A DNA stretch of 64,000 bases from Actinomycetes bacterium (GCA_009787085.1 WRGR01000046.1:11147-75146); one strand, 5' to 3'. Positions 2,850 to 63,147 are shown, numbered from the stretch's first letter. Translations and numbers: made by a program. Notes: a model not told the origin generated them from the sequence alone.

Positions 2850-3000
2850 CGGCGTGGGCCTTTGGGGAAGCGCCGGGGTCCGTCATTGCGGCCACAGTGT
2901 CAAATCGGCGCTTCCATTAACAACTCGATGTAATGCTACATACATATGGAGAATAACATCAAAATCCTAGGGAAGCACTGACTAGGCTAAGAACCGCTGA

Positions 3001-3984
3001 TCAGGCCAGCTGCGCGAGCTGCTCTTTGGTGGCTGCTGCCGCCTGGCGCAGCGCTTGCAGCTCCGTGTCTTCCAGCTCCAGCTGGACGATTTCACGGATT
3101 CCCTCGGAGCCAAGGCGCACTGGAACCCCTAAGTTGATGCCGCCAATACCGTATTCCCCCTGCAGGCGGGCACAAACAGAGAGCACCTTGCCGCTGGGAC
3201 ACAGCACCTCGCTGACCATGGCAGCAATGGATGCGGCGGGGGCATAGAAGGCCGAACCGGTCTGGAGCATCTCGACCACGGCAGCACCACCGTTGACGGT
3301 GTCCTTGACCACGGCGGCAATGTCTGCGGCGCTCAAGCGCTCGGCCAGCGGCGCACCCGCCACCTTGGCCAGGCGCGGCAAGGGCAGCATCGCCTCGCCG
3401 TGGGCGCCGATCACCAGCGCTTCGACGTCTGTCGGTTCGCAGCCACAGCGCGCCGCGATATAGTGGGCGAAGCGCGCCGAGTCCAAAACGCCGCCCATGC
3501 CGAAAAGGCGGGCGGGGCCAAGGCCGGCGTAGCCGAAAGCCAAGTTGACCATAATATCCAAAGGGTTGGTGACCAGCAGGTAAAGGGCATTGGGGGCAAC
3601 GGCCAGGCAGCCGTCAAGCACCGAGCGGACAATGCCAGCGTTCACCGTGAGCAGGTCCTCGCGGGTCATGCCCGGCTTGCGCGGCACGCCAGCAGTGACA
3701 ATGACGATATCGCTGTCCTTAGCATCAGCGTATTCACCACTGCCGAAAACCCGGGGCGCAAAGCCCTCCGCCGCCTTCATGTGCAGCAGATCCAGCGCCT
3801 TGCCACGTGCCAAGCCGTCGGCAATGTCGATCAGCACCACGTTGGCCAAACCGCGCTCCAGCAGCAACTGGGCGGTAGTGGCGCCAACGTTGCCGGCACC
3901 GATCACACTGATCTTAGGGAGGGTCATCCAAACTGGATCCATGAGGCGCATCACCTTCTCCTTCTTCTTTGGGTTCACAGGCAT
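3001..3984 (-). CDS. mdh: Malate dehydrogenase (LDH-like MDH family); the start may be the internal ATG at 3927
   Basis: KISVIGAGNVG Rossmann motif. TAGVPRKPGMTREDLL has Arg at the substrate-discriminating position, which indicates MDH rather than LDH. GAHG catalytic His region is present. Confidence 0.85.
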   Translation of the reverse strand: MPVNPKKKEKVMRLMDPVWMTLPKISVIGAGNVGATTAQLLLERGLANVVLIDIADGLARGKALDLLHMKAAEGFAPRVFGSGEYADAKDSDIVIVTAGVPRKPGMTREDLLTVNAGIVRSVLDGCLAVAPNALYLLVTNPLDIMVNLAFGYAGLGPARLFGMGGVLDSARFAHYIAARCGCEPTDVEALVIGAHGEAMLPLPRLAKVAGAPLAERLSAADIAAVVKDTVNGGAAVVEMLQTGSAFYAPAASIAAMVSEVLCPSGKVLSVCARLQGEYGIGGINLGVPVRLGSEGIREIVQLELEDTELQALRQAAAATKEQLAQLA

Positions 3985-4012: not shown

Positions 4013-6721
4013 TCAAGCCATGTCGGCAGATGGTGCCTCGTCGGCAGCCTGATCGTTTGCGGCTACTTTGGGCTTGGCCGCCGTTTTGGCCTTGCTCGCC
4101 GTTTTGCTGGCCGCCTTGGGCTTGGCTGCGGCCTTGGCTGCGGGCTTAGCGGCGGCCTTGGCCTTGGGCTTGGCCGCGGCCTTGGCCTTGGGCTTGGCGG
4201 CGGCCTTGGCCTTGGGCTTGGCGGCGGCCTTGGCCTCAGCTCTTTCCAGGTTCTGAGGGCAGTTCGGGTTAGGGCAAAGCTCCCAAGGCCCGCGATAGGT
4301 CTGCACCACCACATGAGGGGCACCACAGGCCTCACAGACTTTATCCGTAGCCGTCAGCTTGCCGCGTTGCGGCAACGGGTAGGATGTGTCACAGGTTTCG
4401 TAGTTGGTGCAGCGGACGAAGCGCTTCAAAGTACGCGGATTTTTCTGGGCGATCAGCACGCCGCCTTCTTGGCCTGCAGCAGCACAGGTCGGGCAGCTGC
4501 CGATGGGCAGGTCGGGTTCGAAGTTGGTAGTACAGAGGGGGTCAACGCAGTGCAATAGCGGCTTGGAGCGGAAGGGGGTCACTTTGACCTGTGGCTTGCC
4601 GCAGGTCGGGCAGAGCTCCTCCACCGACTCAATGCGGCCCTGGGGAACCGGGTACGTCACCTCGCACTCCGGCCAGCCGGAGCAGCCGATGAAGTTGCCA
4701 CGGGTTTTGGCCGAGCTCTTCAACAACAGGTCCTTGCCGCAGGCCGGGCAGGCACCAACCCGGGCATCGGCCGTCACGGCATCGCTTAATGCCTCCCCCA
4801 CCTCGTCTTTGGCGGGGATCAGCTCTTCCATGATGTCGGCCAAAAGGCGGCGGGAATGCCCCACCACCGCATCGCGGTCGCTGCCGCCGGCAGCGATGGA
4901 GCTCATCTCCTCCTCTAGGTTGGCGGTCATTTCCGGGGTAGTGATCGGCGGCGCAAAGCGCCCCAGCGCCTCGGCCACCGCTTGTCCTAGGGCAGTCGGC
5001 TCCAGTGGATCACCGACCACATAACGCACTTCGATCAACCGCTCGATGATCGAGGCACGGGTGGACTTGGTTCCCAACCCGAGCTTCTCCATCTGCTGGA
5101 TCAAGCGGCCCTGCGAGTAGCGAGCCGGTGGCTCGGTCTGCTTGTGTTCCATGGTGGCGCCACAGAAGGCGATCTGCTGGCCGGTCTGCAAACGCGGCAG
5201 CTGTTCGTCTTTCTTCAAGCCATAAGGGTAGATGCCACGAAAGCCGGGGCTCACCAGCACATCGCCGCGGGCGACAAAAACCTCGCCGGCCACGTCCAAG
5301 CCGACCTTGGTGCCCTCTACCACGGCCGCCGCAGAAAGCGTGGCCATAAACCGTCTGGCCACCAAGTTATAAAGCTTCCACTCCTCAGGACGCAGCCTGT
5401 CCATATCACCGGCGCCAGTGGGGTAGATCGGCGGGTGGTCGGTGGTCTCGGTCTTGCCCCGAGTGGCCTTGAGCTGCGGCTGTTTCAGCAGCTGTTGAGC
5501 GTAGGCGGCGTAGACTGGCACAGCAGCCAACATCCGCAGACTGTCCTTGAAGTCCAGAGAGGCCGGATAGACCGTGTTGTCAACACGGGGATAAGAGATC
5601 AAGCCGGCCATGTACAACGACTCGGCAATACGCATGCAACGCCCGGGGTTTAAGCCCTCAGCGGCTGCCGCCGCTTGCAAGGCGGTGGTGTTGAAGGGGG
5701 TCGGCGGCGGCACCCGGCGCTGTTTGGTCTCGATGGTGCTGACCGTCGCGGTATCTGCCCCTTCGATCTGCTGCATCACCGCAGCGGCTTCGGCTTCGAC
5801 CTTGAAGCGGTCTTTGGCATGCCCAGCCTCGAAGGCTTGGCCGTTGGAGTCGTCCCCAACGGCAGCCGCCGAGGCCTCAAAGCGCTCGCAAGCGGCATCA
5901 AAACGCCCTTTGACCAGCCAGTAATCTTCAGGCACAAACGCTCGGCGCTCATCTTCGCGGGCGACGATCAGTGCCAAGGTAGGCGTTTGCACCCGCCCCG
6001 AGGGGCGTACCCGCCCAAATCCGGAGAGACGCGCAAGGGTCAGGTAGCGGGTCAGCACCGCACCCCAGATCAGATCGATCCACTGGCGGGACTCACCGGC
6101 TGCGGCCAAGGCGAAGTCCAGTTCGCTCAGCCCGGCAAAGGCCTGGCTGATCTCCGCTTTGGAGAAAGCCGAGTAGCGCGCCCGGGTAGCTGGAATATCC
6201 GGTGCCACCTCGCGAACGATGGCCAGTGCGTCGGCGCCGATCAGCTCGCCCTCACGGTCGTAGTCGGTAGCGATCACCACGCTTTCGGCCTTAGCCGCCA
6301 AGTTCTTCAATGACCGGATGATGCCCTTCTCCGCCGGTGTCTTGACCAACGGTGAATACACCAGATAGGGAAGCGCATCCAACTTCCAGCCTTTGAGATC
6401 AACACCGTCTTCCAAAAAGGGCTTACGCTTTTTAAAGGGCGGCTTGGCCAGCCCGTCAGGGATGCTCGCCGCCAACAGCTCACCGTGCTCATCGAGCGCC
6501 GACCAGCCCCGGCTTTTGCGGTAGATCAGTTGGATAGGGAAATCCAGTGCCAGAATATGGCCGCGCAGCCCAATGGCCACCCATTCTGCGTCATCCCGCT
6601 GAAAGCGGTAGACCGGCGTGTCGTAGACTTTGTCGACCGTGGCCAGACCGTTGGCCAAAAGCTCGGCGATCTTTTTTGCCGCATCGTTTTTCTCAGTTAT
6701 CACTAGGTGCACTAAAAACAA
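4013..6721 (-). CDS. topA: DNA topoisomerase I with C-terminal Zn-ribbon repeats and a Lys/Ala-rich tail
   Basis: 902-aa ORF with a TOPRIM N-terminus (ATDYDREGE), SYPRVD near the catalytic Tyr, several CxxC...CxxC zinc ribbons and an AKPKAKAA tail. Confidence 0.95.
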   Translation of the reverse strand: MFLVHLVITEKNDAAKKIAELLANGLATVDKVYDTPVYRFQRDDAEWVAIGLRGHILALDFPIQLIYRKSRGWSALDEHGELLAASIPDGLAKPPFKKRKPFLEDGVDLKGWKLDALPYLVYSPLVKTPAEKGIIRSLKNLAAKAESVVIATDYDREGELIGADALAIVREVAPDIPATRARYSAFSKAEISQAFAGLSELDFALAAAGESRQWIDLIWGAVLTRYLTLARLSGFGRVRPSGRVQTPTLALIVAREDERRAFVPEDYWLVKGRFDAACERFEASAAAVGDDSNGQAFEAGHAKDRFKVEAEAAAVMQQIEGADTATVSTIETKQRRVPPPTPFNTTALQAAAAAEGLNPGRCMRIAESLYMAGLISYPRVDNTVYPASLDFKDSLRMLAAVPVYAAYAQQLLKQPQLKATRGKTETTDHPPIYPTGAGDMDRLRPEEWKLYNLVARRFMATLSAAAVVEGTKVGLDVAGEVFVARGDVLVSPGFRGIYPYGLKKDEQLPRLQTGQQIAFCGATMEHKQTEPPARYSQGRLIQQMEKLGLGTKSTRASIIERLIEVRYVVGDPLEPTALGQAVAEALGRFAPPITTPEMTANLEEEMSSIAAGGSDRDAVVGHSRRLLADIMEELIPAKDEVGEALSDAVTADARVGACPACGKDLLLKSSAKTRGNFIGCSGWPECEVTYPVPQGRIESVEELCPTCGKPQVKVTPFRSKPLLHCVDPLCTTNFEPDLPIGSCPTCAAAGQEGGVLIAQKNPRTLKRFVRCTNYETCDTSYPLPQRGKLTATDKVCEACGAPHVVVQTYRGPWELCPNPNCPQNLERAEAKAAAKPKAKAAAKPKAKAAAKPKAKAAAKPAAKAAAKPKAASKTASKAKTAAKPKVAANDQAADEAPSADMA
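4152..4237 (-). repeat. In-frame 24-bp tandem repeat (~3.6 copies) encoding the (AAKPKAKA)n tail of TopA
   Basis: Units gcggccttggccttgggcttggcS at 4152, 4176, 4200 and 4224, read directly. Confidence 0.85.
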
Positions 6722-7793: not shown

Positions 7794-7802
7794 CGCCGCC
7801 GG

Positions 7803-16112: not shown

Positions 16113-17201
16113 TCAGAATGGCCATTGGACGCGAGTGGGCTCGGTCGACTCTGACTTGGCGGCATCGTCAACCGCATCCTGCGAGAACGGTGCCACTGTG
16201 TCATCAACGGCCAGAGAGGCCGCTGAGCGCCCTTCTACGGCAGCGGCCGCAGCATTCCCTGTGGCGGTGCTGACAGCATTCGACTCCTCAACCACTTCTC
16301 TGACTGCCGAGGCTATCTCTGCTGGCACATCATCATCAGCAGTCGCAGCCTCCGCAGCAGTCGCAGCCTCCGCAGCAGTCGCAGCCTCCGCAGCAGTCGC
16401 AGCCTCTACGGATGTCGCAGCCTCTGAAGCCTCATCGCTGAGATGTGCCTCAAAGCCGGGCATGCGTGGGCTCGCAGGGACGGACTGCTCTTCAGACGCG
16501 GTCGTGCCGACAACAGTGGCCGACAAGGACGCGCCAGCCGCCGCGACAGCAGCGGCAACCGCGGCTGCCGCCGCAGGCTCGCCAGCAGATGCCGGAACAG
16601 CAGGGGCAGCTTCACGCTTACCAGCGATTGCGGCAGCGGCAGACTCGGGTTCACCAGTGACAGTCTCAGGCCAACCGGCAACAGCCGAGACAGCATCAGA
16701 CTCGCTGACAGTGGCGCCCGCACCAAGCTCGCCAGCAGCCAAAGCGGCCTCGTCCACGGCAGTCGCCTCTGCCGCTTTCAGGGAGTTTTTAAAGCCTTTT
16801 TCGCCCTTCTTGGCAGCAAAGATATTGCGTACCTTGTCAGTGGCCGAGGTCAGCAAGCTCAACGGCGCATCGGCGATGTTCGACACCTTTTTCACAGTTC
16901 CTGATGCCGTATTGGTGACATCCGATATGTCAGCCAGGATCTGGTCCGCTCGCATCAGCTCCAAATTCAGGGCATCCACCGTCAATGACACTCGCTCCAT
17001 TAGGGGATCAACACGTTTCAAGGCCGGTTCTAAAGCCTCAATCGCACCATTGACCTTCTCCACAGTGGGCTGCAGTTCGTCGATGGTCTTGCGCACCCGG
17101 GAAAGCGTGCGAACAAGCTCAACTACAAAAACCACCAGCGCCAACAACAGCAAAGCGCCCGAAGCCATCAGGATCATTCTCAGGATATCTTCAGTAATCA
17201 T
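16113..17201 (-). CDS. DUF948-family membrane-anchored protein with an Ala/Glu-rich repetitive tail (start taken at the internal ATG)
   Basis: MITEDILRMILMASGALLLLALVVFVVELVRTLSRVRKTIDEL... is DUF948-like from memory. The tail contains EAATAA repeats. Confidence 0.65.
   Translation of the reverse strand: MITEDILRMILMASGALLLLALVVFVVELVRTLSRVRKTIDELQPTVEKVNGAIEALEPALKRVDPLMERVSLTVDALNLELMRADQILADISDVTNTASGTVKKVSNIADAPLSLLTSATDKVRNIFAAKKGEKGFKNSLKAAEATAVDEAALAAGELGAGATVSESDAVSAVAGWPETVTGEPESAAAAIAGKREAAPAVPASAGEPAAAAAVAAAVAAAGASLSATVVGTTASEEQSVPASPRMPGFEAHLSDEASEAATSVEAATAAEAATAAEAATAAEAATADDDVPAEIASAVREVVEESNAVSTATGNAAAAAVEGRSAASLAVDDTVAPFSQDAVDDAAKSESTEPTRVQWPF
16339..16407 (-). repeat. In-frame 18-bp tandem repeat (~3.8 copies, EAATAA)
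   Basis: gcagtcgcagcctccgca units at 16339, 16357, 16375 and 16393 (last one partial). Confidence 0.85.
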
Positions 17202-18613: not shown

Positions 18614-18627
18614 TAATAGTGCGAGGT

Positions 18628-18720: not shown

Positions 18721-18750
18721 GCCCTTTCGGGGCAACAAGATGAAACAGCC

Positions 18751-20018: not shown

Positions 20019-20022
20019 CCCC

Positions 20023-38598: not shown

Positions 38599-38632
38599 AG
38601 TCGTAGTAGGCAAGCAGCCCGTTATGGCTAAG

Positions 38633-48922: not shown

Positions 48923-49117
48923 GGAAGCACCGGTTAACTCACAATTCCGTCCCACACGACCCCTGATCAGCAATCCTTCACTTTGCTGACCAGGGGAAGG
49001 ATTGCCGCCTTGATCCGGCAATGGCTGGCTCAAAGAGCTCGAAGACGGCCATCTCGGGGGAAGGATTGCCGCCATGAGCCGGCGATAACTGGGGCTAAAC
49101 GTTAAATCGGCGCTTCC
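48919..49117. repeat. Copy of the palindromic intergenic repeat family; its first ~50 nt match 19892-19945, and it contains an internal direct repeat GGGGAAGGATTGCCGCC (48993-49009 / 49047-49063)
   Basis: The core CCGGTTAACTCRCAATTCCGTCCCACACGACCCC is shared with one mismatch. A 10-bp perfect hairpin pairs GCAATCCTTC (48970-48979) with GAAGGATTGC (48996-49005). Confidence 0.7.
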
Positions 49118-49134
49118 GTATGGAAGCGCCGATT
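49105..49134. terminator. 13-bp perfect hairpin between convergent genes (bidirectional terminator candidate, built from the repeat-family core)
   Basis: AATCGGCGCTTCC-gtat-GGAAGCGCCGATT. Flanking T-tracts are weak. Confidence 0.55.
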
Positions 49135-49145
49135 GGTTTACCCCG

Positions 49146-52100: not shown

Positions 52101-55100
52101 GAGCAGCGGCACTACTGTGTTGTCGGTCGCGTCATAGTTGCGGACATAGGTGATGGTCACAGCATCTGGGTCAACTGGGGTAGTCCCCTTGGTCTGCCAT
52201 TGCGCAAAGACTGTAAAGCTACCGGCCAGCGCCGTCTCTGAGCCAACCGCAGTGTTAGCGTCGAACCAAGTGCCCGTGCCATCGGCACTGGTGTTCCAAC
52301 CGAGGAAATCGTAGCCGAAGAGCACCGGGTTATTGGGCATCCGCTCACCTAGGGTAGTCTGGGGCTCATATACCGTGCGTGTCGCGTAGACACTCGAAGC
52401 TGAGCCGTTGTTCAGATCAAAAGTGATCTGGGCGGTCGGTTCGGCAGCCCGGCCCCACACCGCATAGAGAGTGACATCGGTGCGCAGCTGGAAGTCCGGC
52501 TGGCTGAACTCCCTGGTGGTGGCATCATAGGCGAAGTCGACACGTCCGGCATCGGCCGCCCGCTTGCTTTGGGCCCAGCCTAGGAAAACAGACCCGTCAC
52601 GGGCTAAGTCGCCTGGGCCGATGACGCTGGCCGTATCGTTTAGGTGATACTCGTTGTCATCAGTTGGCACCGTGCCAGCAGTTGCCCCGTTAGCGTTGTA
52701 GAGCACAGCGTAGTTCTCATCGGCCGCCTTCTGCCTCCAGACGGGATACAAAGTGGCATCGCCAGTTATCAGATAACCACTGGCAAAGCTGTCTGTTGGC
52801 CGATCATATGGGTAGTCGGGGTTGCCGGCATCGGCTTTCTCAACAGTGTCTGCCCAACCGATAAAGGCATAACCCGTCTTGACCAAATTGCCCGGCCCCG
52901 GCAGCCCGATCGATTGACCGAGACGACCGCTGTCATTAGGCGGTGCCTCGCCGCTGTCGGCACCACGGTCACTGTATTGCACGGTATAGGGGCTCCAAAC
53001 GGCATACAGCTCCGTGTTGGCAGTGATCGTGAAGAAGGTGAAGTCGAATGTCTGGGTGCCTAGGTCGTAGGCAAAATCAGGAGCCGCCGCCTCTGGAGCG
53101 AATGCCCAGCCCATAAACTTGAGGCCGTCGTTTTCCAAGTTGCCCGGACCCAGCACCATGACCGGGTCGTTTTTAGCATAGCCCCGCACCGATGGGTCAT
53201 GGGGGGGTTCGCCGCCGGTGTTGCCATTGCCGTTGTAGGTGACGAAGACCGGGTCTTTGTAACGCAGCGCGTCAATCAGGTCTTTTAGGCGCTTGGCAGC
53301 GTCGTTGATGTCTTCTTGTGAGGTCCTCGGATCAGGATGGAGGTAGAACTGCACGGAGTCGAAGTAACCGTCCTCCATTGGGTAATAGGTTTCTTCGGTG
53401 TACAGTGCCTTGCGCGGCCGATGGACATTGCTGGCCACATCCATATAGTGAACAAGCTCAGTCCAGTCCAACTGAGCACCCTCCGGGTTTTGCTCCCATA
53501 CGGGATAGAGAACCACATCGTCAGTAATCGCAAAGGGCAAAGTGGCGCCGTCGTAATAATAGATGTAGGTAGCTGGATTGGCCGGGTTCACACCCGCCTC
53601 TAGCATCCCCAGCGTCGCCCAGCCCTTGAACGTATAGCCGCTACGCCGCAGGTCGTTATGTGGCAGCAGGGTCACTGTGCTATCAAGATGGTAGGTTTGC
53701 GGGTCGCTGAAGGAGCTGCCGCTGGTGGTGCCGACCAAGATGCCGTTAACCTCACTGGCGTTGGAATAGGTCACTGTGAAAGGGCCATACCTTTGCCAAG
53801 TGGCAAAGAGCACGGTGTCTTGGCTTATCGTAAATGCGCTTTCATTGGCATTGAAGGTGTTTGTTCGCCAGTTGTAATGGAAGACAGGGGTTTGGGCAGC
53901 GGCACTGTCCTGACTGTTGGCCCAGCCGATAAAAACATAGGTGTTGGTGCCATCGCCCTTGGTCATCTCGCCCGGGCCGAGCAGGTTGACGGTGCTGCCG
54001 ACGTAGTAGGCATTGGCGGCAGCTGGGGCGTTGCCAGCAGTGTCATAAGGCACCTTGGCCAAATCGTCAGCACCGTTGCCGTCATAGGCCACCGTGAACT
54101 GGGAGTTCTGTGACCAAACGGCATAAAGCGTGGTTTGGTCCGTCAGGAATATCGTCGGGCCCGGTGTGAAGCTATTGGTTGCGGCAGCGTAGGCATAATC
54201 CGGCGTGGTTGCCGTAGCGCTGGTTGCCCAGCCCAAGAAGGTCCAACCGAACTTGGTCATGCTGCCCGGCGGCGCGATTGTGACGGCATCGTCTGTGTGG
54301 TAGGTCCCACCTGTCGGCGGCGAGCCACCGTCCGAACCATTGCCGTTGTAGGCCAAGCCGTACTGCGACTTCTCTTGCCAAACGGCATAGAGCGTAACAT
54401 TGGCGGCAATCACGAACTGCTCAGGTGTCAGGCTCGGGGGCGCTGTGGCCGCATTATAGGCATAGTCAGGCACCGTCGCCGCAATATTGGTTGACCAGCC
54501 GATGAAGGTATAGTTTTGCTTGGCCAAATCATTTGGCCCCAGCACCAGCACCGTGCTTTGATCATAGTAACGGTTGGTGTTGACCTGTGCATCGCCAGCT
54601 ATGTCGACCGGAACCGTACCGCTGGTATTGAGATTGCCGTTATAGGTGACGGTGTACTTGTTGTCCTCCTGCCACACCGCATACAGTGTGGTGTTCCCCG
54701 GTATCTCGAACGAGCCGGGGGTGAATCCACCGGTGCTAGCATCATAAGCATAGTCCGGTGCCGAAGTGGCCGCACTGGTCGACCAACCGATGAACTTGTA
54801 GTGAAGCTTCGCTAGGTCGCCGGGGGGCGCGGGCGGAATTGCCGTGCCGCCGAGGAAGTCCCCGCTTACCGTTGGAGCATCACCGGCGGTATTACCATTG
54901 CCGTTATAGGCCAGCGTGTAGCGGTTTTCCTGCCAAACGGCATACAGGGTGGTGTCTGCCGTGATGTTGAAAGCCGCCGTGTTGAATGTTGCCTGTGTGG
55001 AGTTATAGGCAAAGTCAGGGGTTGTTGCATCTGGGTCCAACGCCCAGCCCCGGAATGTCCAGCCTTCGATAGTGCCCGTGCCGTTATAGCGGCGCATGCT

Positions 55101-58100
55101 GCCTGGGCCCAACACCGTAACGTTGCTGCCCACGTAATAGGCATTCGCCAATGCCGGGTAAGGCGCATTGCCGTGGGTATCGGCTGGCACCGTGCCGCCA
55201 ACCGTACCGGTTGGGGCATTGGCATTGTAGGTCACTGTGTAGTGGGGGTTTTCCTGCCAAACAGCGAACAGCATGGCGCTGCCGTTGATGTTGGTGATAG
55301 CTGCGGGGTTGACTGAGCCGGATGCAGCGTCATAGGCATAGGTGGGACTGGTCGCGGTCGGACTGGTTGCCCAGCCCCGGAATGTCCAGAACTGCTTGGC
55401 CATCTCTCCGGGGCCTTGGATGGGGACTGTCTCGCCTTGGAAGTACTGCTCCATCGCCGGAGCGCCACCGCTGCTGAGAACAGCGTTCGCTATATAGATT
55501 ACCTCGTATGATGGCAGCCGCGTATACACATAAGTCACCGTATGCTGGCCATCGACACTGGCCAAGACATTGCTGGGCAAAACCCCGCCCTCGCGGGGAT
55601 ACATGGTGCCGTTGTCCAGTATCCAGCCTTGGTAGTCCCAGCCCCGAAGCTCCGGATAAAGCGGGCTGCCATCAACGCCTAGGCTATTCCAAAGCCGGAT
55701 GTTGTCGGCGTATGCCCTTCCCCATGGCAAGGTTACCATCTCGTCGTCCAGCAGGCTGTTACCGGTGTTGTTGAACTCGCGCCAGCGCTCCGTGATGTAG
55801 AAGCCGTCGGCATGCTCATTGGTTTTTTGGTAGACATAGACGATGGTCATGTCGCTTGACAGGCTCTCGATGACCGGCGGATCGCCAGCGATCAAGTCGT
55901 GGCGGTCATCACCTTGCTTAAAGCCGATGTAGCGCCAAATCCACTCACCGTCGCTGAGACGGTCCGGCGGGTTGCCGGCAACCATCTCGCCACCGACCCG
56001 TGTATTGCTGATATCCGGTGCCAGCGGCCGCGCCATGTACACGTCATCAGTGCCATCGACCAGCACATCTAAGATATTGGAGTGGAACTGTTCGGTGACC
56101 ACATAGGTCGTGCTGAAGAGAAGCGTGATGGTCTGGTTGGCTTGGATGTTCGTCAGTTGCGGTGGGTCGCCCTGATGAACAACGGGCCTAGTGTAGGTGC
56201 CGCCGTTACCGTCATCAACCTCTTCAGTTGTCCCATCGGTCCAACCACGATAAACGCTGTAGGTCTTGCCAGTGGGCAACGCTATGCCGTTGGCTATGGC
56301 ATTTTGAATATTAGTCTCGGCCATGGGGTTGAAGCCTTGCCCCCGATCAACTAGATAGTCCTCATTGGGCGCTAGGATATTGGCATCATTTTGGTATTCC
56401 TTGTACTGTACGGTAACAGCAAAGCTTTGCTTGAAGTAAAGATCGATCGTCAAGCTGTTGTTGGTGCTCAAAAGCTCAGCCGGGCTGAACGTAACGTCCG
56501 GTGCGCTAGGCACAGGCCCGGCAGTCACGGCTCCGAAAACACTGTCTTTGGCCAGACGGTAGCTCACATAGAAGTAGCTACGCGAGTTGATGATCGGGTC
56601 CATGTGGTAGGCCGCTATGTAGTACGGGAGCGTTGCGTCCACGTTCTCTTTGTATTGGGTCTGGAGAATCAGGTTGGTGTCCTGATCGATGTAGTTGATG
56701 GTCAGCGGGATGTCTTTGAGGTAGTAGTAGATGACATCGTTCAGCTCCCCTGGCAAAACATCGGGAGGAGCACCAACAGTTCTTGTTGCGCCGCCATCTG
56801 TCGAATAGGCAAAGTAACGCCAATTGTAGGCAGTATTGCTGTCGTATTGGGTCAGGCTGCCAAGCGCGGTCATTGGCGGCAGATAGTCGCTGCCACCGCT
56901 GACCAAACTGGTCGTATTGCCCTGCACCGCAGTTGTCGGGTCCTTGTAGCTCAGATAATGCTCGGTGACGATATGCGAGGTAGTGTGATAGGTGTGGTTC
57001 GAGCGGCTGGTGTAGTCCAGCGCGTTCTCCATCACCGCCCGGTTATCAAACAGGTCTTGGCCGGCGGCCACCGTGACTGAGTATTTGAACTTGGTGATCG
57101 CCTCATCGGGTATTTGGGTGAATTGCCATACCAGCTTCTGGCGCTCCCGGGTTTGCGTGACCATGGCCTGGGTGGCATCATCCCAAACTTGAACGTCCTC
57201 GTAGTAGGGTTCGACCTTGAAATCAACTAGGCCGATACCTTGGTTATAAGCCACGCCTTGGGACAACGCGACACCTTGGTCGTCAACAACCTGATAGCTG
57301 CCGTTATAGGTCATGCCGTACGGCAACACGTCGCTGAGTACAAACGGGTACACCGACGCACCGTTGGCACCAGTGCTCACGTCAGCAGTCATTATCACTT
57401 TGTCTTTAGGAGTCCAGCCGGCAATATTTATCTCGCTTTGCTTGTTAGTCAGGGTAATGCCGTATTCCAGTTGATCGCCAACATCAACCCGAACTGGTTT
57501 GCTCTCTGTCCCCCGCTCAGAGCTAGCAGGCGGTTTTGTAATGTTGCTGGCCGTTACCTCCGCGTCTTTGACGGCGGGAACCAGTGGCACCCTGGTGTAG
57601 AAGAGCGTAAACTCGTTTTGGGAGAGCGGCGGCGCGTAGAAATCGGCCGCCTGATACATGTTGTTTTGCAGGCCATTTAAGCTGGTGCTGTCGTACTCGT
57701 AGAGCTTTCCACCCCGGTTGATGTACTGCGGCGGCTCGACATAGAAGTAATCGCCAGGCGTTATCGGCTCACCGTCCTGGTCACGCTGGATGTGCCGTTC
57801 GATGCCGGCAATGGCCTCGCCGGTATCCATGTCGATGAAGTGCGCCAGTGCGCCAACTTGTTCACCGTCCCTGAAGGCAGCGATGCGCATATTCTCGTAC
57901 TGGATAACGGTCAGGGAACTGCAGGCATGGGCAAGGTAGCCGGTGAAGAAGCCGAAGCCGTTGCCGCTGTATATCGGCTGTTGGACATCGGCCACCACTC
58001 TGCCGTCCAAGTAGATCTTAAAGGCACCAGTTACGGAGTTGCGATCAACACGAACATCGTAGGGAACAGTGGATGCTGCCGAGATACCCGTCTTATAGGT

Positions 58101-61100
58101 ACCGATAATCTGCCGTTGGCCATTGGCCGAGCCGGTGGCCGGTATTTGATAAGTGCTGGAGTTCATGTAGACATTATTGTAGTAATAGAGCCGCAAGGTG
58201 CCACGGTCTAAGATGAAGCCATAGCCGGTGTAGTAGTTGTTCCTCATGTAGCCATTGAACAGCAGACCGGTCTCAGCAAAGGTATGGAAGTCCATACGCA
58301 TCGGCCTTTGCGTATAGCTGATGGTGGTAAAGCCGTCAGGATAGAGGTTGGTGTAGCACATATCCATGAAGGGTGGTTGCCAGTAGCCCAAAAAACGCAT
58401 CGTCGTGCTGCCGAAAACAATGTGGTTGGCCGTGGCATAGCCGTTATAGCTGGCAGACTTGGCCGCTGTATAGGCTGTGTCATATTGCGGGTGGTCGACT
58501 ATCTGGTCCCAGGATATGCTGCTGATCGGCTTGGTTGCCGATTGTCCGGGGTTTTTAGGCGGGTAGTCTTTGATGACCGGGCCGACTATCGGCAGGTCGG
58601 TGCGTACTGCCGCTGTCGGGTTCGACGGGTCACTGGCACCGTTGGCGTTTACCGCCATTAGGCGGAACTGGTACTCGGTGTCTGCGTCTAGGCCATCGAT
58701 CCTGACGGGGAAGGTCGGTGAGTGCGACAGGCTGTCAGTGGTTATCGGGTGGTCTTTGTAGGTTCCATCGTCTACCCTTATCGCCCGTACTGTATAGCCG
58801 GTTGCGCCGCTGTTCAGCGGCCAGCGCAGATAAACTGAGTTATAGGTGGTTCCGGACAGTACCTCTGGCGGGTTGGGAGGGGCAAGCTTGGTGGTGATTG
58901 TAGCGTCCGCAGACGGGTCACCGTCGCCATAGCTGTTGTAGGCTCGCACTTTGAAGGAATAGCCAGTATTCGCAGACAAACCGGTATAGGTATAAGACGT
59001 GACATTGCCGATGTCCGTCCATGTCGCGCCGTTGTCCCTGGATATCTTATAGCCAGTTGCTGTGGCGGCTGGAACCCAAGTCAGTGATGCCGTGTAGGAG
59101 GTCACTGCGGTCACCACCGGGGCGCTCAATGCTGCAATCGTAGTGTACTTGGCAACTGACAAATCAGACGCGGCACCCGCGCCGCTGGCATTACGCCCAC
59201 GTACCTCAAAACTGTAGGAAGTCTCCGAGGCCAAGCCGGTATAGGTGTAATTGGTGACGTTTCCCAACGATAGCCAGTCACTGCCAGCAGGCCAAGCTCC
59301 GCCGGTCACGCGAATGTCGTAGCCGGCAATAGTGCCGCTGAGGGCTGTCCAGGTGATCGTCTCGGTGTTTGCCGTAGACGCGGTCGCCCGGGGCGTGGCC
59401 GGTTTGGTAGGCAGGGTGAGGGTGGCGGTCGAGGCTGGCGACACCGAGCCCTCCCCCAACCCGTCGACATAGCCCCGAACAGCGAACGTGTAGCTGGTGG
59501 CGGGGTTCAGGCCGGTGATCGTGTAGGTTGGCGCTGTTGGGCTAGCATAGTCCACTGGCCTGATCAACGTCCAAGCCCCAGTACCGTTTATCTGATACTC
59601 ATAGCCACCAACGTTCTCGACAACCCCACCTTCTGAGTAAGGGCTCCAGCTGATAGTCATAGTGGTGTCGGTCATGCCCGTCACAGTCGGACGGGTGGGC
59701 GGCCCGGATTTAGTTGTTAAGGTCGCAGAGGCAGCTGACGGCGCACTTTCTCCACCATTGTTGTAAGCGATGACCTTGAATGAATAGGTGGTTTGCGGAT
59801 GCAGGCCGGTATAGGAAAGGCTGGTGGCCGTGCCGCTGGCTGTTTGCCACGTAGCAAAGTCATCATAAGATACCTTATAGCCACTTATCTGCTGGCCTGA
59901 CGGTGTTGGAGTCGTCCAAGAAACCACTGCTGTATCGTGCAGGTTGGCGGTGTTGGCAGACAAGGCCACGTTCGGTGTGCCGGGAGCAGAGGGTACCGTG
60001 TATACCGCATCGGACACCGTCGATGCCGCACTACTGCCGTTTTGGTTGTATGCGGTTATCCTGAAAGTATAGCTTGTGCCAACTGTAAGGCCCGTCAATG
60101 TGTAGCTTTGGGTATTGCCGACATCTATCGGTGTAGCCCATGAGCCGTTGTTCGCCCGTGCCTCGATGCGATAGCCGGAGACATTGTAGTTCGCCCCAGT
60201 CGCGGGGTTTACAGTAGCCCCCAAATCGGACCATTCTATCGTGATGCCGGCCGCTGTCGAGCTTGCCACCACCGGCTTGGCTGGCGGCGGCAGGAGTGTA
60301 TAGGCGTCAGCAGGCAAGGATGTTGGCGAGGCACCGCCGGTGTTGTAGGCGATTACCCTGAAGGTATACAGGTTGTCTGCCGCCAAAGCTGTTGTACCGG
60401 TATAGGTGTAGGTCAAGACGTTGCCAACATCCCGCCAAGTGGCACCATTATCGGATGAGAGTCGATACCCTGTCGCTCCGGCCTGAGTGGTCCAGTTCAA
60501 CCTGATGCTGGTATCTGACAAGGTCGTCGGGACGGGTGCGGCTGGCCGCGCCGGCGCAGTATAGCGCGGTTGGGAAGCAGCCGACTGGTCACCGGCGCTG
60601 TCGCCGGTGAGTGCTTGTATCCTAAAGGTGTACTGGGTGTTCGGGGATAGCCCGGTATAGACAAAGCTTGTCGCATCGGATACCTCGAGAGAAGACCCAT
60701 CACTGGCATAGATCACATACCCGGTTACACTGCCCGCTGGCGCTGTCCAGTTCAGCAGAATGCTGTCTGAGGTCGACGAAACCAGCACCGGTGCTGCGGG
60801 CGCCCCGGGAGCCGTGTAGATCATGCCCGATTCCGGCGACTTGGCGCTGGTGCCAGCCGAAGATCTGGCCTCAACTTGGAAAATATACCCGGTTCCCGCA
60901 GTCAGGCCGGTTATCGTGGCGTTTGTGGCTGTTCCCGTAGTGCTTATGCTCCTGATCGGAGTGCCGCCCGGAGAACTCAAAATATAGACGTTGTAGCCTT
61001 GGACATTCGCCCCTGTGGAAACAGATGCGTTCCATTGCAGCGCTATGCTGGTGGAAGTAACCGCAACCGCCCACGGTGCAGAGGGAGCCGTGGGCACCAG

Positions 61101-62630
61101 CAAGGTGGTGACAACGGCCGTGTAAAGCGACGGATCGCCCTTCTGATAGTTGCTGTTTGCGGCAGATCGAGCAAAGAAGTAATAGGTGGTGTTGGCCGCT
61201 AGGCCGCTAAACGTCAAGCCGGTCTGCCAACGGCTGTCGTCAGTGGGCGCCGTAGGTGTTGTGCTGACCGAGTACTCCACGCTCTGGCCGGTGTTGGCTT
61301 TTAGGGAGGCGGCGCTGAGGTTGACACTGGTGGTGGTCTTGCCGGGTGCTTCGCCAGGGGGGTTGGCATTCGCACCCCTAATCGGATTGCCACTAAAAGT
61401 GCTGCCGGCGCTCAATGCTATAGTCGAACCATCTGCCGGAACAACAGTGCCGCCGTTATCCAGTGTTGCACTGGCCGCTACATTCAGGCTGGCCGACCCG
61501 GACACGGTCAGAGTTGCACCATTTGCTATTCTGAGCGAGTTACCAGAAGCGATGCTCAGTGTGTAGCCAGCCGGGATCGCAACATCACTGGCCATAGTTT
61601 TTACAGAGTTGCCATACCAATTGCTGGCTCCGCCTTTGATGACCAAAACGCCCTCGGTCTTGCCAGCAGCGCCCGCGTCACTGACAGCATCTGCAAACAC
61701 AAACGCATTGCCGTTCATGCCCAGTGTTCCTGCTGCACCAGCCGAGCCGGCTCCAAGGCCAGTGGGCGAGCCGATTATGTTGGAGGTGACCACTCCCGAG
61801 TTGATAGCCAGATTACCGCCATCGCCGTTTCTGCCGGTCAGAGTACCGCCGCCACCGAGGCCGGCACCATAGGTGCTGATCGACGAGACCCGGGCACCGC
61901 CCGTGGCCAATGCCCCGGTGCCGACAGTAATGGTTCCGCCTGCACCGGCTGAACCATAGAGGGAGGCACCGCCACCGATGGCCGCGCCGTAATAGCTGTT
62001 CGCATCAACAATGCCGCCATTGATGGTGATATTGCCGCCTGCGCCACCTCGCTCCGATGAGCTGCCGCCGCCGCCGATACCAGCGCCATTGGCAGCAGCA
62101 GCGGTGATCCTGCCACCATTGATGGTTATCGAACCGGCATTTTGACCAGCCTCAATGTCAGAGCCGTTGCCGCCGATGGCCGCGTTGTAGGTTCCGGAGG
62201 GCACGGATGCCGTCAAGACACCCCCGTTCGCACCGCTGCTCTGGGCATAGACCGTCAGGCTGTTGCCCTCAGCAACGGCGATGCCGACATTCTCCACCCC
62301 CAGATGGGCACCATCTTGGAGGATGATATGAACATCGCCATTAACCGTGATCCGCGAGGTGAATGTAACGTTTCCAGTGACGGTATACCAGCCGGCAGAC
62401 AGGGTTGTCATGCTCGGCGTTAAATCCGTTGCACTGCTTTGCACCTGGCGTGTCCCAGTGGCATCCAGGTAGGCCACGTTGTTGGCCGCGAAAACGCGCA
62501 CAAAGCCAACACCGGCCAAAAGCCCGATTGCCAAGCAGGCCGACAGAATGCAGAGCAGTGCCTTTCTTGATCTCGCGAATTGCCCGAATTGCTGGAATTG
62601 CTTAAATTTCCTAGTCCGTTTAAACTTCAT
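49146..62630 (-). CDS. Giant (4,494-aa) modular cell-wall-anchored surface adhesin
   Basis: A single uninterrupted ORF. It has a signal peptide, a Gly-rich beta-helix-like region, ~10 FN3 modules, lectin-like and MucBP-like modules, 13 Listeria-Bacteroides (InlB B-type) repeats, 5 DUF11-like modules, and an xPxTG sorting signal plus hydrophobic helix plus basic tail. Confidence 0.9.
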   Translation of the reverse strand: MKFKRTRKFKQFQQFGQFARSRKALLCILSACLAIGLLAGVGFVRVFAANNVAYLDATGTRQVQSSATDLTPSMTTLSAGWYTVTGNVTFTSRITVNGDVHIILQDGAHLGVENVGIAVAEGNSLTVYAQSSGANGGVLTASVPSGTYNAAIGGNGSDIEAGQNAGSITINGGRITAAAANGAGIGGGGSSSERGGAGGNITINGGIVDANSYYGAAIGGGASLYGSAGAGGTITVGTGALATGGARVSSISTYGAGLGGGGTLTGRNGDGGNLAINSGVVTSNIIGSPTGLGAGSAGAAGTLGMNGNAFVFADAVSDAGAAGKTEGVLVIKGGASNWYGNSVKTMASDVAIPAGYTLSIASGNSLRIANGATLTVSGSASLNVAASATLDNGGTVVPADGSTIALSAGSTFSGNPIRGANANPPGEAPGKTTTSVNLSAASLKANTGQSVEYSVSTTPTAPTDDSRWQTGLTFSGLAANTTYYFFARSAANSNYQKGDPSLYTAVVTTLLVPTAPSAPWAVAVTSTSIALQWNASVSTGANVQGYNVYILSSPGGTPIRSISTTGTATNATITGLTAGTGYIFQVEARSSAGTSAKSPESGMIYTAPGAPAAPVLVSSTSDSILLNWTAPAGSVTGYVIYASDGSSLEVSDATSFVYTGLSPNTQYTFRIQALTGDSAGDQSAASQPRYTAPARPAAPVPTTLSDTSIRLNWTTQAGATGYRLSSDNGATWRDVGNVLTYTYTGTTALAADNLYTFRVIAYNTGGASPTSLPADAYTLLPPPAKPVVASSTAAGITIEWSDLGATVNPATGANYNVSGYRIEARANNGSWATPIDVGNTQSYTLTGLTVGTSYTFRITAYNQNGSSAASTVSDAVYTVPSAPGTPNVALSANTANLHDTAVVSWTTPTPSGQQISGYKVSYDDFATWQTASGTATSLSYTGLHPQTTYSFKVIAYNNGGESAPSAASATLTTKSGPPTRPTVTGMTDTTMTISWSPYSEGGVVENVGGYEYQINGTGAWTLIRPVDYASPTAPTYTITGLNPATSYTFAVRGYVDGLGEGSVSPASTATLTLPTKPATPRATASTANTETITWTALSGTIAGYDIRVTGGAWPAGSDWLSLGNVTNYTYTGLASETSYSFEVRGRNASGAGAASDLSVAKYTTIAALSAPVVTAVTSYTASLTWVPAATATGYKISRDNGATWTDIGNVTSYTYTGLSANTGYSFKVRAYNSYGDGDPSADATITTKLAPPNPPEVLSGTTYNSVYLRWPLNSGATGYTVRAIRVDDGTYKDHPITTDSLSHSPTFPVRIDGLDADTEYQFRLMAVNANGASDPSNPTAAVRTDLPIVGPVIKDYPPKNPGQSATKPISSISWDQIVDHPQYDTAYTAAKSASYNGYATANHIVFGSTTMRFLGYWQPPFMDMCYTNLYPDGFTTISYTQRPMRMDFHTFAETGLLFNGYMRNNYYTGYGFILDRGTLRLYYYNNVYMNSSTYQIPATGSANGQRQIIGTYKTGISAASTVPYDVRVDRNSVTGAFKIYLDGRVVADVQQPIYSGNGFGFFTGYLAHACSSLTVIQYENMRIAAFRDGEQVGALAHFIDMDTGEAIAGIERHIQRDQDGEPITPGDYFYVEPPQYINRGGKLYEYDSTSLNGLQNNMYQAADFYAPPLSQNEFTLFYTRVPLVPAVKDAEVTASNITKPPASSERGTESKPVRVDVGDQLEYGITLTNKQSEINIAGWTPKDKVIMTADVSTGANGASVYPFVLSDVLPYGMTYNGSYQVVDDQGVALSQGVAYNQGIGLVDFKVEPYYEDVQVWDDATQAMVTQTRERQKLVWQFTQIPDEAITKFKYSVTVAAGQDLFDNRAVMENALDYTSRSNHTYHTTSHIVTEHYLSYKDPTTAVQGNTTSLVSGGSDYLPPMTALGSLTQYDSNTAYNWRYFAYSTDGGATRTVGAPPDVLPGELNDVIYYYLKDIPLTINYIDQDTNLILQTQYKENVDATLPYYIAAYHMDPIINSRSYFYVSYRLAKDSVFGAVTAGPVPSAPDVTFSPAELLSTNNSLTIDLYFKQSFAVTVQYKEYQNDANILAPNEDYLVDRGQGFNPMAETNIQNAIANGIALPTGKTYSVYRGWTDGTTEEVDDGNGGTYTRPVVHQGDPPQLTNIQANQTITLLFSTTYVVTEQFHSNILDVLVDGTDDVYMARPLAPDISNTRVGGEMVAGNPPDRLSDGEWIWRYIGFKQGDDRHDLIAGDPPVIESLSSDMTIVYVYQKTNEHADGFYITERWREFNNTGNSLLDDEMVTLPWGRAYADNIRLWNSLGVDGSPLYPELRGWDYQGWILDNGTMYPREGGVLPSNVLASVDGQHTVTYVYTRLPSYEVIYIANAVLSSGGAPAMEQYFQGETVPIQGPGEMAKQFWTFRGWATSPTATSPTYAYDAASGSVNPAAITNINGSAMLFAVWQENPHYTVTYNANAPTGTVGGTVPADTHGNAPYPALANAYYVGSNVTVLGPGSMRRYNGTGTIEGWTFRGWALDPDATTPDFAYNSTQATFNTAAFNITADTTLYAVWQENRYTLAYNGNGNTAGDAPTVSGDFLGGTAIPPAPPGDLAKLHYKFIGWSTSAATSAPDYAYDASTGGFTPGSFEIPGNTTLYAVWQEDNKYTVTYNGNLNTSGTVPVDIAGDAQVNTNRYYDQSTVLVLGPNDLAKQNYTFIGWSTNIAATVPDYAYNAATAPPSLTPEQFVIAANVTLYAVWQEKSQYGLAYNGNGSDGGSPPTGGTYHTDDAVTIAPPGSMTKFGWTFLGWATSATATTPDYAYAAATNSFTPGPTIFLTDQTTLYAVWSQNSQFTVAYDGNGADDLAKVPYDTAGNAPAAANAYYVGSTVNLLGPGEMTKGDGTNTYVFIGWANSQDSAAAQTPVFHYNWRTNTFNANESAFTISQDTVLFATWQRYGPFTVTYSNASEVNGILVGTTSGSSFSDPQTYHLDSTVTLLPHNDLRRSGYTFKGWATLGMLEAGVNPANPATYIYYYDGATLPFAITDDVVLYPVWEQNPEGAQLDWTELVHYMDVASNVHRPRKALYTEETYYPMEDGYFDSVQFYLHPDPRTSQEDINDAAKRLKDLIDALRYKDPVFVTYNGNGNTGGEPPHDPSVRGYAKNDPVMVLGPGNLENDGLKFMGWAFAPEAAAPDFAYDLGTQTFDFTFFTITANTELYAVWSPYTVQYSDRGADSGEAPPNDSGRLGQSIGLPGPGNLVKTGYAFIGWADTVEKADAGNPDYPYDRPTDSFASGYLITGDATLYPVWRQKAADENYAVLYNANGATAGTVPTDDNEYHLNDTASVIGPGDLARDGSVFLGWAQSKRAADAGRVDFAYDATTREFSQPDFQLRTDVTLYAVWGRAAEPTAQITFDLNNGSASSVYATRTVYEPQTTLGERMPNNPVLFGYDFLGWNTSADGTGTWFDANTAVGSETALAGSFTVFAQWQTKGTTPVDPDAVTITYVRNYDATDNTVVPLLDDSGQPMTLYYQDGDPVAMMPAPPTPPAGYHFAGWALNRTGTTINNLDPFVTTATAVRTAWANTDKVIYVYAIWATNTYTVTVVDEPTGFVWSKDVEYGSNLQDTADQSLFSLPFNGRKFLGWTTIKDSGIVNVSDDDLVVASITVYPVWEAAPSLTKEAKWKAPAEDDDDAILHYIVTATNRSKNSIWHDVVINDKLPTMMRLIPESIYVTWQNGTREHLSYERVYDESTRTLTLDIGEVVGGQSYLLEFDVTVYDTDDPPTEPQEVQDSFGNIAAADGLRTPPVYPPDFPDPGPVGHGSGDVYLHKSVVAPVHPGNPTVGDCLIYTIEAGNTKPGSLWEDVVINDRVPDGMEIDTSSIWLQHPDGTTTQVSASAYNPATRMLRVDAGLIWGGQKCYLSFKAIISDDVYTVIDNSGQGYHALDNTAQTDDGVSTGPVGTGEISSNQPALYKSAVNKSHPNQKTKRGDVLTYTITAANDGDPHSLWKDVNIEDTMPVGVVPDLSTVRLYLNDSATPLPTSSTPSYNSSTRLFRLALGDISGGSSIRVEFDATVTETAYDLGNSAHAYWGGGRGHIHTGYIYPQGDDGTGRVGNQDPTDPTDPTDPTDPTDPTDPTDPGDNSGEPLLTKDVDNQTHPQQNAEPDDLLLYRVTLTNPKAGTVWRDVMIFDYLPQELVPDTSTMTLIYPNGSREMVGASVYHPDTRTIEVPIAILRGGETYVFTYQAQVDVDDGTPAENVPDEIVNNVTVSHDGGDPPPGGGTTSKIKLVPPGDDGGQPPDPDEPDDPGDPPTLTKGVENETHPQQDAEPDDLLRYKVTLSNPKAGTVWRDVMIFDYLPDELVPDTDTMMLTYPNGTVEKVGASVYHPESRTIEVPIAILRGGETYIFTYRAQVDVGDGTPAESFPKEIVNNVTVVPPDGSDWPPGVQAKASIKLVPARSGSIAPLTGDQGLLLLLVALDLLCSGAVCVFGPRLARRLSTVRAGRRE
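49149..49280 (-). other. Cell-wall sorting signal: IAPLTGD (xPxTG variant), hydrophobic helix, Arg-rich tail
   Basis: ...SGSIAPLTGDQGLLLLLVALDLLCSGAVCVFGPRLARRLSTVRAGRRE*. Confidence 0.7.
49365..51635 (-). repeat. Adhesin aa 3666-4422: five DUF11-like (conserved repeat domain) modules; the last two (49860-50231 and 49365-49736) are near-identical copies 495 bp apart
   Basis: ...L.Y.V.L.N.....W.DV.I.D.LP....P....... pattern. Modules 4 and 5 are roughly 85% identical by eye at the aa level, with long identical nt runs. Confidence 0.7.
50250..50315 (-). repeat. 9-bp microsatellite encoding (PTD)7 inside the adhesin
   Basis: ggggtcggt / ggggtccgt units read directly. Protein: DPTDPTDPTDPTDPTDPTDPTDPGD. 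Confidence 0.9.
51636..55508 (-). repeat. Adhesin aa 2375-3665: 13 Listeria-Bacteroides (Flg_new / InlB B-repeat) modules with one ~70-aa helical insert
   Basis: Recurrent Y.V.Y..NG..G..P....Y........G.....G..F.GW.T........Y........L.....LYAVW. Confidence 0.8.
55509..58595 (-). other. Adhesin aa 1346-2374: lectin/jelly-roll-like domain (~1365-1586), a DUF11/isopeptide-type domain (~1690-1885) and ~6 MucBP-like modules
   Basis: Modules end in ...FTLFYTR, ...VIYYYLKD, ...IDLYFKQ, ...ITLLFST, ...TIVYVYQK and ...TVTYVYTR. Family names are tentative. Confidence 0.45.
58596..61340 (-). repeat. Adhesin aa 431-1345: array of ~10 fibronectin type III modules
   Basis: Repeated ...P.AP......TS.SI.L.W......GY.V.......W........YT.TGL...T.Y.F.V.A.N..G.S..S... 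Confidence 0.8.
61341..62468 (-). other. Adhesin aa ~55-430: Gly-rich repeats (AAIGGNG / AGIGGGG / AGLGGGG ... ITINGG), parallel beta-helix-like
   Basis: Recurrent x-I/L-GGG-x and ITINGG motifs every ~25-40 aa. The fold assignment is tentative. Confidence 0.5.
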
Positions 62631-63147
62631 GTTTGTGCCCCCCGTGCTTATCCGATTCTACTGCTAGCTCAATGATCCTGATACCCACTTTTCCACCGCA
62701 AACAACCACTATCAATACCCCTAACGCCGCGTGCCCCAAAGAAGCACCGACTGGCATCACCAATGCTTGACGGTTGTATTTTTTGCCACAGAATCCCTCT
62801 GTTAGCGGCTGTCGCAAAAACCTCAGTTGGTGTTTTTGTGACTGCCAACAGAGCACGGCCAATGAGCCCCTCCCCAAAGGAGCCTGATCGAAACCTATTC
62901 ACTGTTTACCTCACCCACCCTGCTTGATACTTACATTTGCCTTAACTGCCTTAAATAAGCGACCTCATCGTTTGGTTTTCTTCGATTCGTCTGGAGTTTT
63001 TATGGAACAATGCGGCCTTCATCCTATTTCAGACTTACGACACAAATTTTAGCATACATTCTGATAATATCAAGACAAATTTTAGATTACCAACACTTCA
63101 GCAAACATGAGGGTTACTGCTCACCCCTCACTCGCACCGCGCCGCTA

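Follow-up and report, generated by a model that had tools for sequence, protein, structure and literature searches.

What is the short motif GGAAGCRCCGA, and how did it come to stand repeatedly between the genes of a bacterial chromosome? The question arose from an initial sequence-only reading of a 64-kb stretch of DNA (here called the window, meaning the whole of the stretch that was analysed), which proposed a REP/BIME-like repeat, a MITE-like family with ~16-bp terminal inverted repeats, or a set of terminator-forming modules. We find the second of these proposals the likely one: the motif most probably stands at the ends of small IS5-type MITEs, non-coding and for the most part decayed to relics, that lie between genes.

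The host is an uncultured actinobacterial genome, a Coriobacteriia-like MAG from a deep-branching and almost unsampled lineage. In a protein search with one window protein, the next relatives were at most 47% identical and mostly labelled Coriobacteriia. The window itself is ordinary core chromosome with a GC content of ~58%, and its genes include rpoB, topA, hypA/B, tatA/C, alaS, mgsA, PFOR and feoAB, together with a DtxR-type repressor gene, clpX, clpP, tig, tRNA-Gly and tRNA-Ala. A Pfam search found no transposase gene in the 64-kb window.

Number and location of the motif

Allowing at most one mismatch, GGAAGCRCCGA has 14 matches in the window, against 3.07 ± 1.85 in dinucleotide shuffles, none of which reaches 14. 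For the exact core GGAAGCRCCGR there are 9 matches against 0.34 ± 0.67 in shuffles, where 0 shuffles reach 9, so the motif is indeed present above chance, as had been claimed. A 30-nt profile was built from the copies and run on the window; it returned the same sites and one extra (19128-19146), with nothing more above noise. Counting fragments, there are ~13 copies at 8 loci in the 64 kb, and the 11-nt tip is exact in 9 of them.

Genes were placed with a greedy ORF map, in which ~91% of the window falls in ORFs (non-coding ~9-12%). All family copies in the window lie in spacers or overlap the final codons of a gene, and none is in a gene body, in agreement with the sequence-only reading that every copy is outside coding sequence or at a gene end. 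The one-mismatch match at 31358, inside feoB, has no extended similarity to the family and is best taken as chance. The described sequence was present at all of the coordinates given in that reading, but one listed copy, 43412-43421, is not an end. It was considered as a left end and rejected, being part of a fragment of 42 nt with homology to element C at its right end (Table 1). Absent from the list were the solo end at 2971-2981, element D, and the end at 19130-19145 in the Rrf2 gene.

The motif as the tip of a terminal inverted repeat

With the copies oriented alike, conservation extends to ~16-20 nt, in the form (C)TAG-GGAAGCRCCGR-TTWA, and the motif forms the outermost part of a terminal inverted repeat of 16-20 bp whose consensus is (CTAG)GGAAGCRCCGRTTWA. 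Pairs of the type GGAAGC...GCTTCC bound the elements A, B, C and D (127-195 bp) and a 50-bp hairpin, S1. The other ends are solo or truncated (2971, 49122 and 62740, and on the minus strand 19145, 33576 and 43451). Compared ungapped, the two ends of A, of B, of C and of S1 agree at 12-15 of 20 positions; those of D match only with a 1-nt gap. Inverted half-sites stand 4-173 nt apart. The proposal that copies form inverted pairs with the GGAAGC type first holds for these five elements, but not for the 4-nt pair at 49107-49132, which runs GCTTCC first and consists of two element ends abutting.

Table 1 Elements, fragments and solo ends of the repeat family in the 64-kb window. Flanks are the tetranucleotides to the left and right of an element.
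Feature	Coordinates	Strand	Flanks	Sequence and remarks
S1	2866-2915		TTGG / ATTA; no duplication	50-bp short derivative; left end GGAAGCGCCGG (2866-2876), right end TCGGCGCTTCC (2905-2915), 28-nt spacer
Solo end	2967-2985	+		CTAG-GGAAGCACTGA-CTAG; core 2971-2981
Solo end	19130-19145	-		GGAAGTGCCGAGTTAT; makes up the final codons of the Rrf2-family regulator gene (19125-19568, minus strand)
Element B	19738-19891		CAAG / CTAG; imperfect	154 bp; left end degenerate GAAAACACCGGTTAAAT, right end GCTTAGTCGGTGCTTCC
Shared CTAG	19892-19895			single copy between B right end and D left end
Element D	19896-20022		CTAG / CTAG; only perfect duplication among window elements	127 bp; degenerate ends GGAGATGCCGGTTAAC ... 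TTAATCGGTACCCC
Solo end	33566-33576	-		GGAAGCACCGAATCAGG; divergent feoA / alcohol dehydrogenase promoter region
Element A	38633-38795		TAAG / TAAA; imperfect	163 bp; foldback over full length
S2	43410-43451			C-like element of which a truncated right end is present; ...GAGCCGG..CTGGGG..TTAATTCGGCACTTCC
Probable degenerate A/B-type right-end remnant	43453-43480			TGGCGTGGCATGATTGATCGACATCTCC; exact 14-mer in common with B, rest read by eye and weak
Element C	48923-49117		CTAG / GTAT; no duplication	195 bp; left end GGAAGCACCGGTTAAC, right end GTTAAATCGGCGCTTCC
Solo left-type end	49122-49136	+		GGAAGCGCCGATTGG; abuts C right end across GTAT
Solo end, slightly degenerate	62740-62754	+		AGAAGCACCGACTGG; ~110 nt upstream of the 4494-aa gene start

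Whether the copies align beyond the 11-mer is one of the points on which the idea of a family turned in the sequence-only reading, and they do. Elements C and D align over ~110 nt (score 92 vs a null maximum of 25), and A and B have 54 nt of internal sequence in common (score 41 vs a null maximum of 23). The A/B similarity, first noticed as a match of 19788-19811 to 38757-38780, is thus real and extends to 54 nt. The internal segment TGGCGTGGCATGAT recurs at 43453-43466 as had been stated, and is an exact 14-mer in common with B. Other fragments could be assigned in the same manner. S2 (42 nt) aligns with the last 43 nt of C; the right end of S1 with its subterminal sequence (29 nt) matches the left end of A at 24/29; the solo end at 2967-2985 is of the same subtype as the right end of B (19/21); the end at 19130-19145 matches that at 43436-43451 at 15/16; and the end at 62740-62754 shares a 12-mer with the right end of B. 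Candidate partners for two solo ends, 18969 for the end at 19145 and ~62825 for the end at 62740, were unsupported by folding, and no partner was found for the end at 33566-33576.

Element A is the most regular of the larger elements. Its ends match at 15/20 and its predicted fold (38625-38803) has an energy of -100.3 kcal/mol (z -8.39), while B, C and D give less regular folds. Element A is located 35 nt downstream of tRNA-Gly (38524-38598), and S1 lies between the malate/lactate dehydrogenase stop (3001) and the next gene. None of the elements can be read from end to end as a gene. Long ORFs overlap them in just two cases: one is a 76-aa ORF of the greedy ORF map (19714-19944) that we judge to be spurious, the other the over-extended start of an alkylation-repair gene (38776).

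Database searches with the elements themselves returned little. Rfam gave no family at the gathering threshold, nor at a relaxed threshold for element A, and blastn of element C against plasmids gave no match. A literature search on four 11-mers returned only primers and the like.

Ends and flanks compared with IS5-family elements

Metagenomes were scanned for short hairpins that contain the two arms, with >119 matches. Almost all were unrelated GC-rich hairpins, and the 11-mer arms alone are therefore not diagnostic. Only one contig held a convincing member of the family (L018, ERZ791907 NODE-607), and two viral scans gave one chance match and one conserved phage gene end. The member on L018 (9949-10107), which stands at an independent position of this contig, is a 159-bp foldback MITE, CTAG-GGAAGCACTGATTAAT...ATTTAATCAGCGCTTCC-CTAG, with a folding z of -7.9. 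Its host is Dialister, a Negativicute, as ribosomal protein L1 is 93-96% identical to that of Dialister sp. entries. Dialister rplA loci were searched for the empty site of this MITE, and had a different gene order and no family ends.

The Dialister element is of the same size class as the window elements and, like element A, folds back over its full length. Its left end with CTAG matches that of element C at 21/25, and its left end matches the solo end at 2967-2985 at 17/18. It differs in having an AT-rich interior unrelated to the window sequences, in a core with CTG rather than CCG, and in its Negativicute host.

When the Dialister element was searched against plasmids with blastn, a Marinobacter plasmid was matched over 26 nt, which proved to be the right end of a 1229-bp element. 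On this plasmid (Marinobacter sp. M3C, NZ_CP092285.1) the element reads CTAG-GGAAACACTGATTTAT...GATCAGCGCTTCC-CTAG around an annotated IS5 family transposase; its right end is also written CGATTTGATCAGCGCTTCC. The transposase carries PF01609 and PF05598, has thousands of relatives, and is 49% identical to the E. coli IS5 transposase. E. coli IS5 itself reads CTAA-GGAAGGTGCGAAC...CTAA (left end also written CTAA-GGAAGGTGCGAA). Further elements of this kind are found in Chromatium okenii (IS5-family, TTAA-GGAAACACTGATTAAAT...ATCAGCGGTTCC-TTAA), Pigmentiphaga daeguensis (IS5-family, left end only, CTAG-GGAAACGCTGAAT) and P. amygdali (CTAG-GGAGGCGCTGCAA...CTAG).

Like the window ends, the IS5-group insertion sequences start with GGAAG or GGAAR-C-R-C-Y-G-A-T, and they have 4-bp YTAR flanks (CTAG, CTAA, TTAA), which those of the window elements mostly resemble. 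The target duplication of IS5 is 5'-YTAR-3' (PMC5009759). Since ends of this type, with flanks mostly alike, are present on transposase-encoding IS5-family elements in other bacteria, we assign the window elements to IS5-group MITEs; judged by sequence, the end type is that of the IS5 group of the IS5 family. The suggestion of a MITE-like family with ~16-bp terminal inverted repeats is in this way supported, with ends and mostly CTAG/YTAR-like flanks of the IS5-group type. Ends of this type are present in Actinomycetota, Negativicutes and Pseudomonadota alike.

There are also clear differences. The insertion sequences encode a transposase, whereas the window elements are 50-195 bp long and have none. 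The Marinobacter right end, GGAAGCGCTGATCAAATCG, agrees with the Dialister MITE end at 18/19, but with the window ends over only the first ~11-15 nt. The window copies have CCG in the core where IS5-group insertion sequences have CTG or TGCG, and the closest full insertion sequence found has CTG for the window CCG and a host from a different phylum. All of the full-length relatives retrieved are from Pseudomonadota, while the window host is actinobacterial.

A described MITE of this kind is MITEPsy1 of Pseudomonas syringae pv. phaseolicola, a non-coding element of ~100 nt with 18-nt inverted ends (GGAAGGTCTGAAAAAGCC) that start with GGAAGG. It makes a 4-nt duplication at CTAG or YTAA, is thought to derive from the IS5-family element ISPsy2, and was trapped experimentally as a mobile element (PMC3189936). 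Its end differs from that of the window family after the first five bases, it belongs to another phylum, and there is no internal homology. Mobility is experimental for MITEPsy1, whereas the window copies are diverged and their mobility is putative.

The flanks of the window elements are less uniform than this comparison might suggest. Family ends are typically flanked by CTAG, but this tetranucleotide is palindromic and so could be part of the inverted repeat. TA adjoins most ends, and would be predicted there both by a YTAR duplication and by a TA duplication. Three flank tetranucleotides contain the stop codon of a neighbouring gene. In the CTAG that precedes C, the TAG (48920-48922) ends the GyrI-like gene; the right CTAG of D (20023-20026) holds the TAG stop (20023-20025) of the 509-aa gene on the minus strand; and the CTAA that follows 43480 provides, through its CTA, the TAG with which the DUF4153 gene stops (43481-43483, minus strand).

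Alternative explanations

The flanks could be read in another way, in that the elements might be MITEs of IS630/Tc1-mariner type, beginning with GGGAAGC and inserted in the TA of CTAG with duplication of TA. IS630 elements prefer CTAG and duplicate TA. Several copies do read C-TA-GGGAAGC...GCTTCCC-TA-G, and the flanks of C are better accommodated by an IS630 origin, as C has TA on both sides (CTA-GGGAAGC ... GCTTCCG-TA) though its 4-bp flanks differ. We nevertheless consider this origin improbable. The transposase-encoding elements found with such ends are all of the IS5 family and have 4-bp YTAR flanks that include CTAA and TTAA, the tip GGAAG is the IS5 tip, and no IS630-family element with such ends was seen.

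A quite different possibility is that the copies are functional host sequences, either a terminator or RNA-hairpin module or the operator of a regulator, and persist under selection instead of having been spread by transposition. The stronger conservation of the 11-mer core, compared with the remainder of the element, would suit such a role. So would the hairpin at 49105-49134, in which the solo end at 49122 pairs perfectly with the right end of C over 13 bp around a 4-nt loop; this hairpin stands between two convergent genes, of which the 4494-aa gene stops at 49146-49148. One solo copy stands in the feoA/adh divergent promoter region. Any use of this kind might also have arisen secondarily from MITEs. 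We regard maintenance by host function alone as unlikely, since half-site spacing ranges over 4-173 nt, the neighbouring genes are functionally unrelated, some copies lie within the last codons of a gene, and both the internal homology and the match to IS5 ends would be left unexplained. The terminator-forming modules of the sequence-only reading find no support as an account of the family. No family hairpin has a T-tail or is called by a terminator scan, the stem at 49103-49136 is followed by no T/U tract (tails GGTTTACC / TAACGTTT), and the copies at 33566 and 62740 are upstream of genes.

The first of the three initial proposals, that of REP/BIME-like repeats, would have short palindromic units mobilised by a RAYT (IS200/IS605-like) transposase and arranged in mosaic clusters. 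The strictly intergenic position of the copies, their head-to-head and tail-to-tail pairs, and composite clusters such as B with D, or C with the solo end at 49122, all fit this description. More generally, the window family resembles REP/BIME, ERIC, Correia and RUP in being made of small intergenic hairpin repeats that can overlap gene ends and alter annotation or expression. However, the single unit GGAAGCRCCGATTTAA is not self-complementary, so that hairpins arise only from two inverted units, and the terminal inverted repeats enclose 100-170 nt of shared interior and have duplication-like CTAG flanks. The ends match IS5 elements, and no RAYT gene was found in the 64-kb window by Pfam search. 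The ends of REP/BIME, ERIC, Correia and RUP elements differ from those seen here, the end GGAAGCRCCGA being present in none, and their transposases presumably differ as well: REP depends on a RAYT transposase and RUP on an IS630-type enzyme, and Correia elements show a TA duplication. We therefore abandon the REP/BIME proposal as very improbable.

Chance or a compositional artefact is excluded as the explanation of the motif: isolated GC-rich hairpins with these 11-mer arms do occur in many unrelated genomes, as seen in the metagenome scan, but the observed counts are reached by no shuffle and homology between the copies runs far past the core. A reading as DNA uptake sequence (DUS/USS) was also rejected, as no copy lies in a gene body and extended homology between copies covers 40-110 nt.

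Proposed history of the family

For the favoured IS5-type MITE origin, we envisage that an IS5-type DDE transposase encoded elsewhere would bind both ends of a gene-less element, excise or copy it, and insert it at YTAR (mostly CTAG here), whereby the tetranucleotide would be duplicated. Every YTAR contains TAA or TAG, so surviving insertions would be expected to accumulate at stop codons and in spacers. This property of the target may account for the gene-end positions, the abutting elements, and the stop and start codons supplied by the repeats. Abutting elements would result when an insertion strikes a target already duplicated by an earlier one, and the arrangement B-CTAG-D-CTAG looks like the product expected of such an event. 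We infer that the elements were once mobile in the host genome and that they had an IS5-type transposase partner there.

Identity between copies is 75-85%; a number of ends are degenerate, and many of the copies survive as solo or truncated ends. The 15-25% divergence, together with the degenerate ends and the many solo ends, suggests that the family is old, and it is probably inactive. The window sequence is also found in an ENA metagenome contig and a Logan contig, which are two other assemblies of the same genome; both are identical to the window at the elements, and no empty site or presence/absence polymorphism was seen among them. When the DUF4153 protein was used to query a species-representative genome collection, a single locus was returned, at 41% identity, from a termite-gut Coriobacteriia MAG (L003). 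As this is the only relative locus and has no motif copies, orthologous spacers could not be compared.

As far as literature and database searches tell, the family is previously undescribed. It is a real but ordinary example of a well-known kind of repeat, the IS5-group MITEs, and opens no new mechanism. Its value lies rather in recording earlier IS5-type activity in a lineage that lacks both cultured relatives and close relatives that have been sequenced, and in illustrating why YTAR-targeting elements gather at stop codons.

Some of the relics may since have been taken into host use, as tail-less terminators, RNA-stabilising hairpins or sites for a domesticated IS5-type protein. This idea is prompted by the tip, which is near invariant while element bodies have drifted to 75-85% identity, and by the exact placement of copies at stop codons, downstream of a tRNA gene and in the gap separating convergent genes; we give it a low probability.

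Consequences for annotation

The relics interfere directly with gene annotation. From them come the start codon at 38776 (ATG), two TAG stop codons (48920 and 20023) and the final codons of the Rrf2 gene. They also create spurious ORFs (19714-19944), so masking them improves gene calls in the MAG. The sequence-only reading had already remarked that one copy distorts ORF calling, and rightly so, for the longest alkylation-repair ORF opens with an ATG (38776) that falls within the right arm of element A. In this ORF the Pfam match begins only at residue 19, which makes the in-frame TTG at 38815, placed behind a GGAGG, the likelier start.

Matches to the end pattern and other inverted repeats

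Scans of IMG/VR viral contigs for the end pattern of the GGAAGC family of decayed MITEs returned GTTGGTGGGCACTAGGGAAGCGCTGATTAAGGCGGTGACCTAGATGGCAAA, which is common to eight contigs (L125, L126, L131-L133, L135, L137 and L138). A conserved gene appears to have its 3' terminus in this sequence, which translates as ...LVGTREALIKAVT*; we regard its match to the pattern as coincidental and do not count it as a family end. The inverted repeat in the rpoB leader, upstream of the gene, is not a family member either; it could act as an attenuator or terminator, or represent some other repeat. Seven consecutive T residues come after it. A further inverted repeat was seen either just upstream of the MgsA-like AAA gene or at its 5' end.

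The rplKAJL loci of Dialister (L142-L151) were compared because a contig from this genus carries a 159-bp MITE with similar ends. These loci contain two spacers of strain-dependent length, with differences of 71 bp and ~100 bp. The GGAAGC-type end is absent from both spacers, and the length differences may reflect small mobile elements or repeats of another kind.

Features considered in the window and in an example pair of Dialister loci
Feature	Position	Strand	Detail
rpoB, N-terminus	3-1706	minus	
24-nt inverted repeat ATCTCTGTTAAACCACCGTTGACA	1768-1791 + 1842-1865		perfect arms; 50-nt spacer
Coding tandem repeats, topoisomerase I C-terminal tail	4071-4260		12-nt period
Coding tandem repeats, DUF948-like gene	16303-16428		9/18-nt period
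31-nt inverted repeat	18625-18655 + 18693-18723		arms 90% complementary; 37-nt G/A-rich spacer
ORF overlapping repeat elements or relics	18751-19059	minus	
ORF overlapping repeat elements or relics	19714-19944	minus	
Phd/YefM-type antitoxin gene, then small ORFs	39619-39951		
Single 4494-aa ORF	49146-62630	minus	
Dialister spacer 1	L142 11831-11979 vs L143 11831-12050		differs by 71 bp
Dialister spacer 2	L142 13256-13513 vs L143 13327-13483		differs by ~100 bp

Gene annotation and coding repeats

As both overlap repeat elements or relics and gave no Pfam match where tested, the ORFs at 18751-19059 and 19714-19944 are unlikely to be real genes. For the alkylation-repair gene, the probable start codon is TTG 38815, which is preceded by GGAGG, rather than ATG 38776. 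The Phd/YefM-type antitoxin gene may be part of a toxin-antitoxin pair; the small ORFs that come after it had no match in Pfam. Such a pair would lie in a stretch of small genes without annotation at 39.6-42.3 kb.

The sole difference between the window and L001, an ENA contig from the same genome, is 36 nt in length near 16373-16388, within the tandem repeats of the DUF948-like gene. The 4494-aa ORF, the product of which is probably a giant surface protein, contains many internal repeats of ~88-100 aa each, and towards the 3' end there is a tandem repeat with a 9-nt unit (50242-50327). MITE ends bracket this ORF, occurring at the stop as well as in the upstream region.
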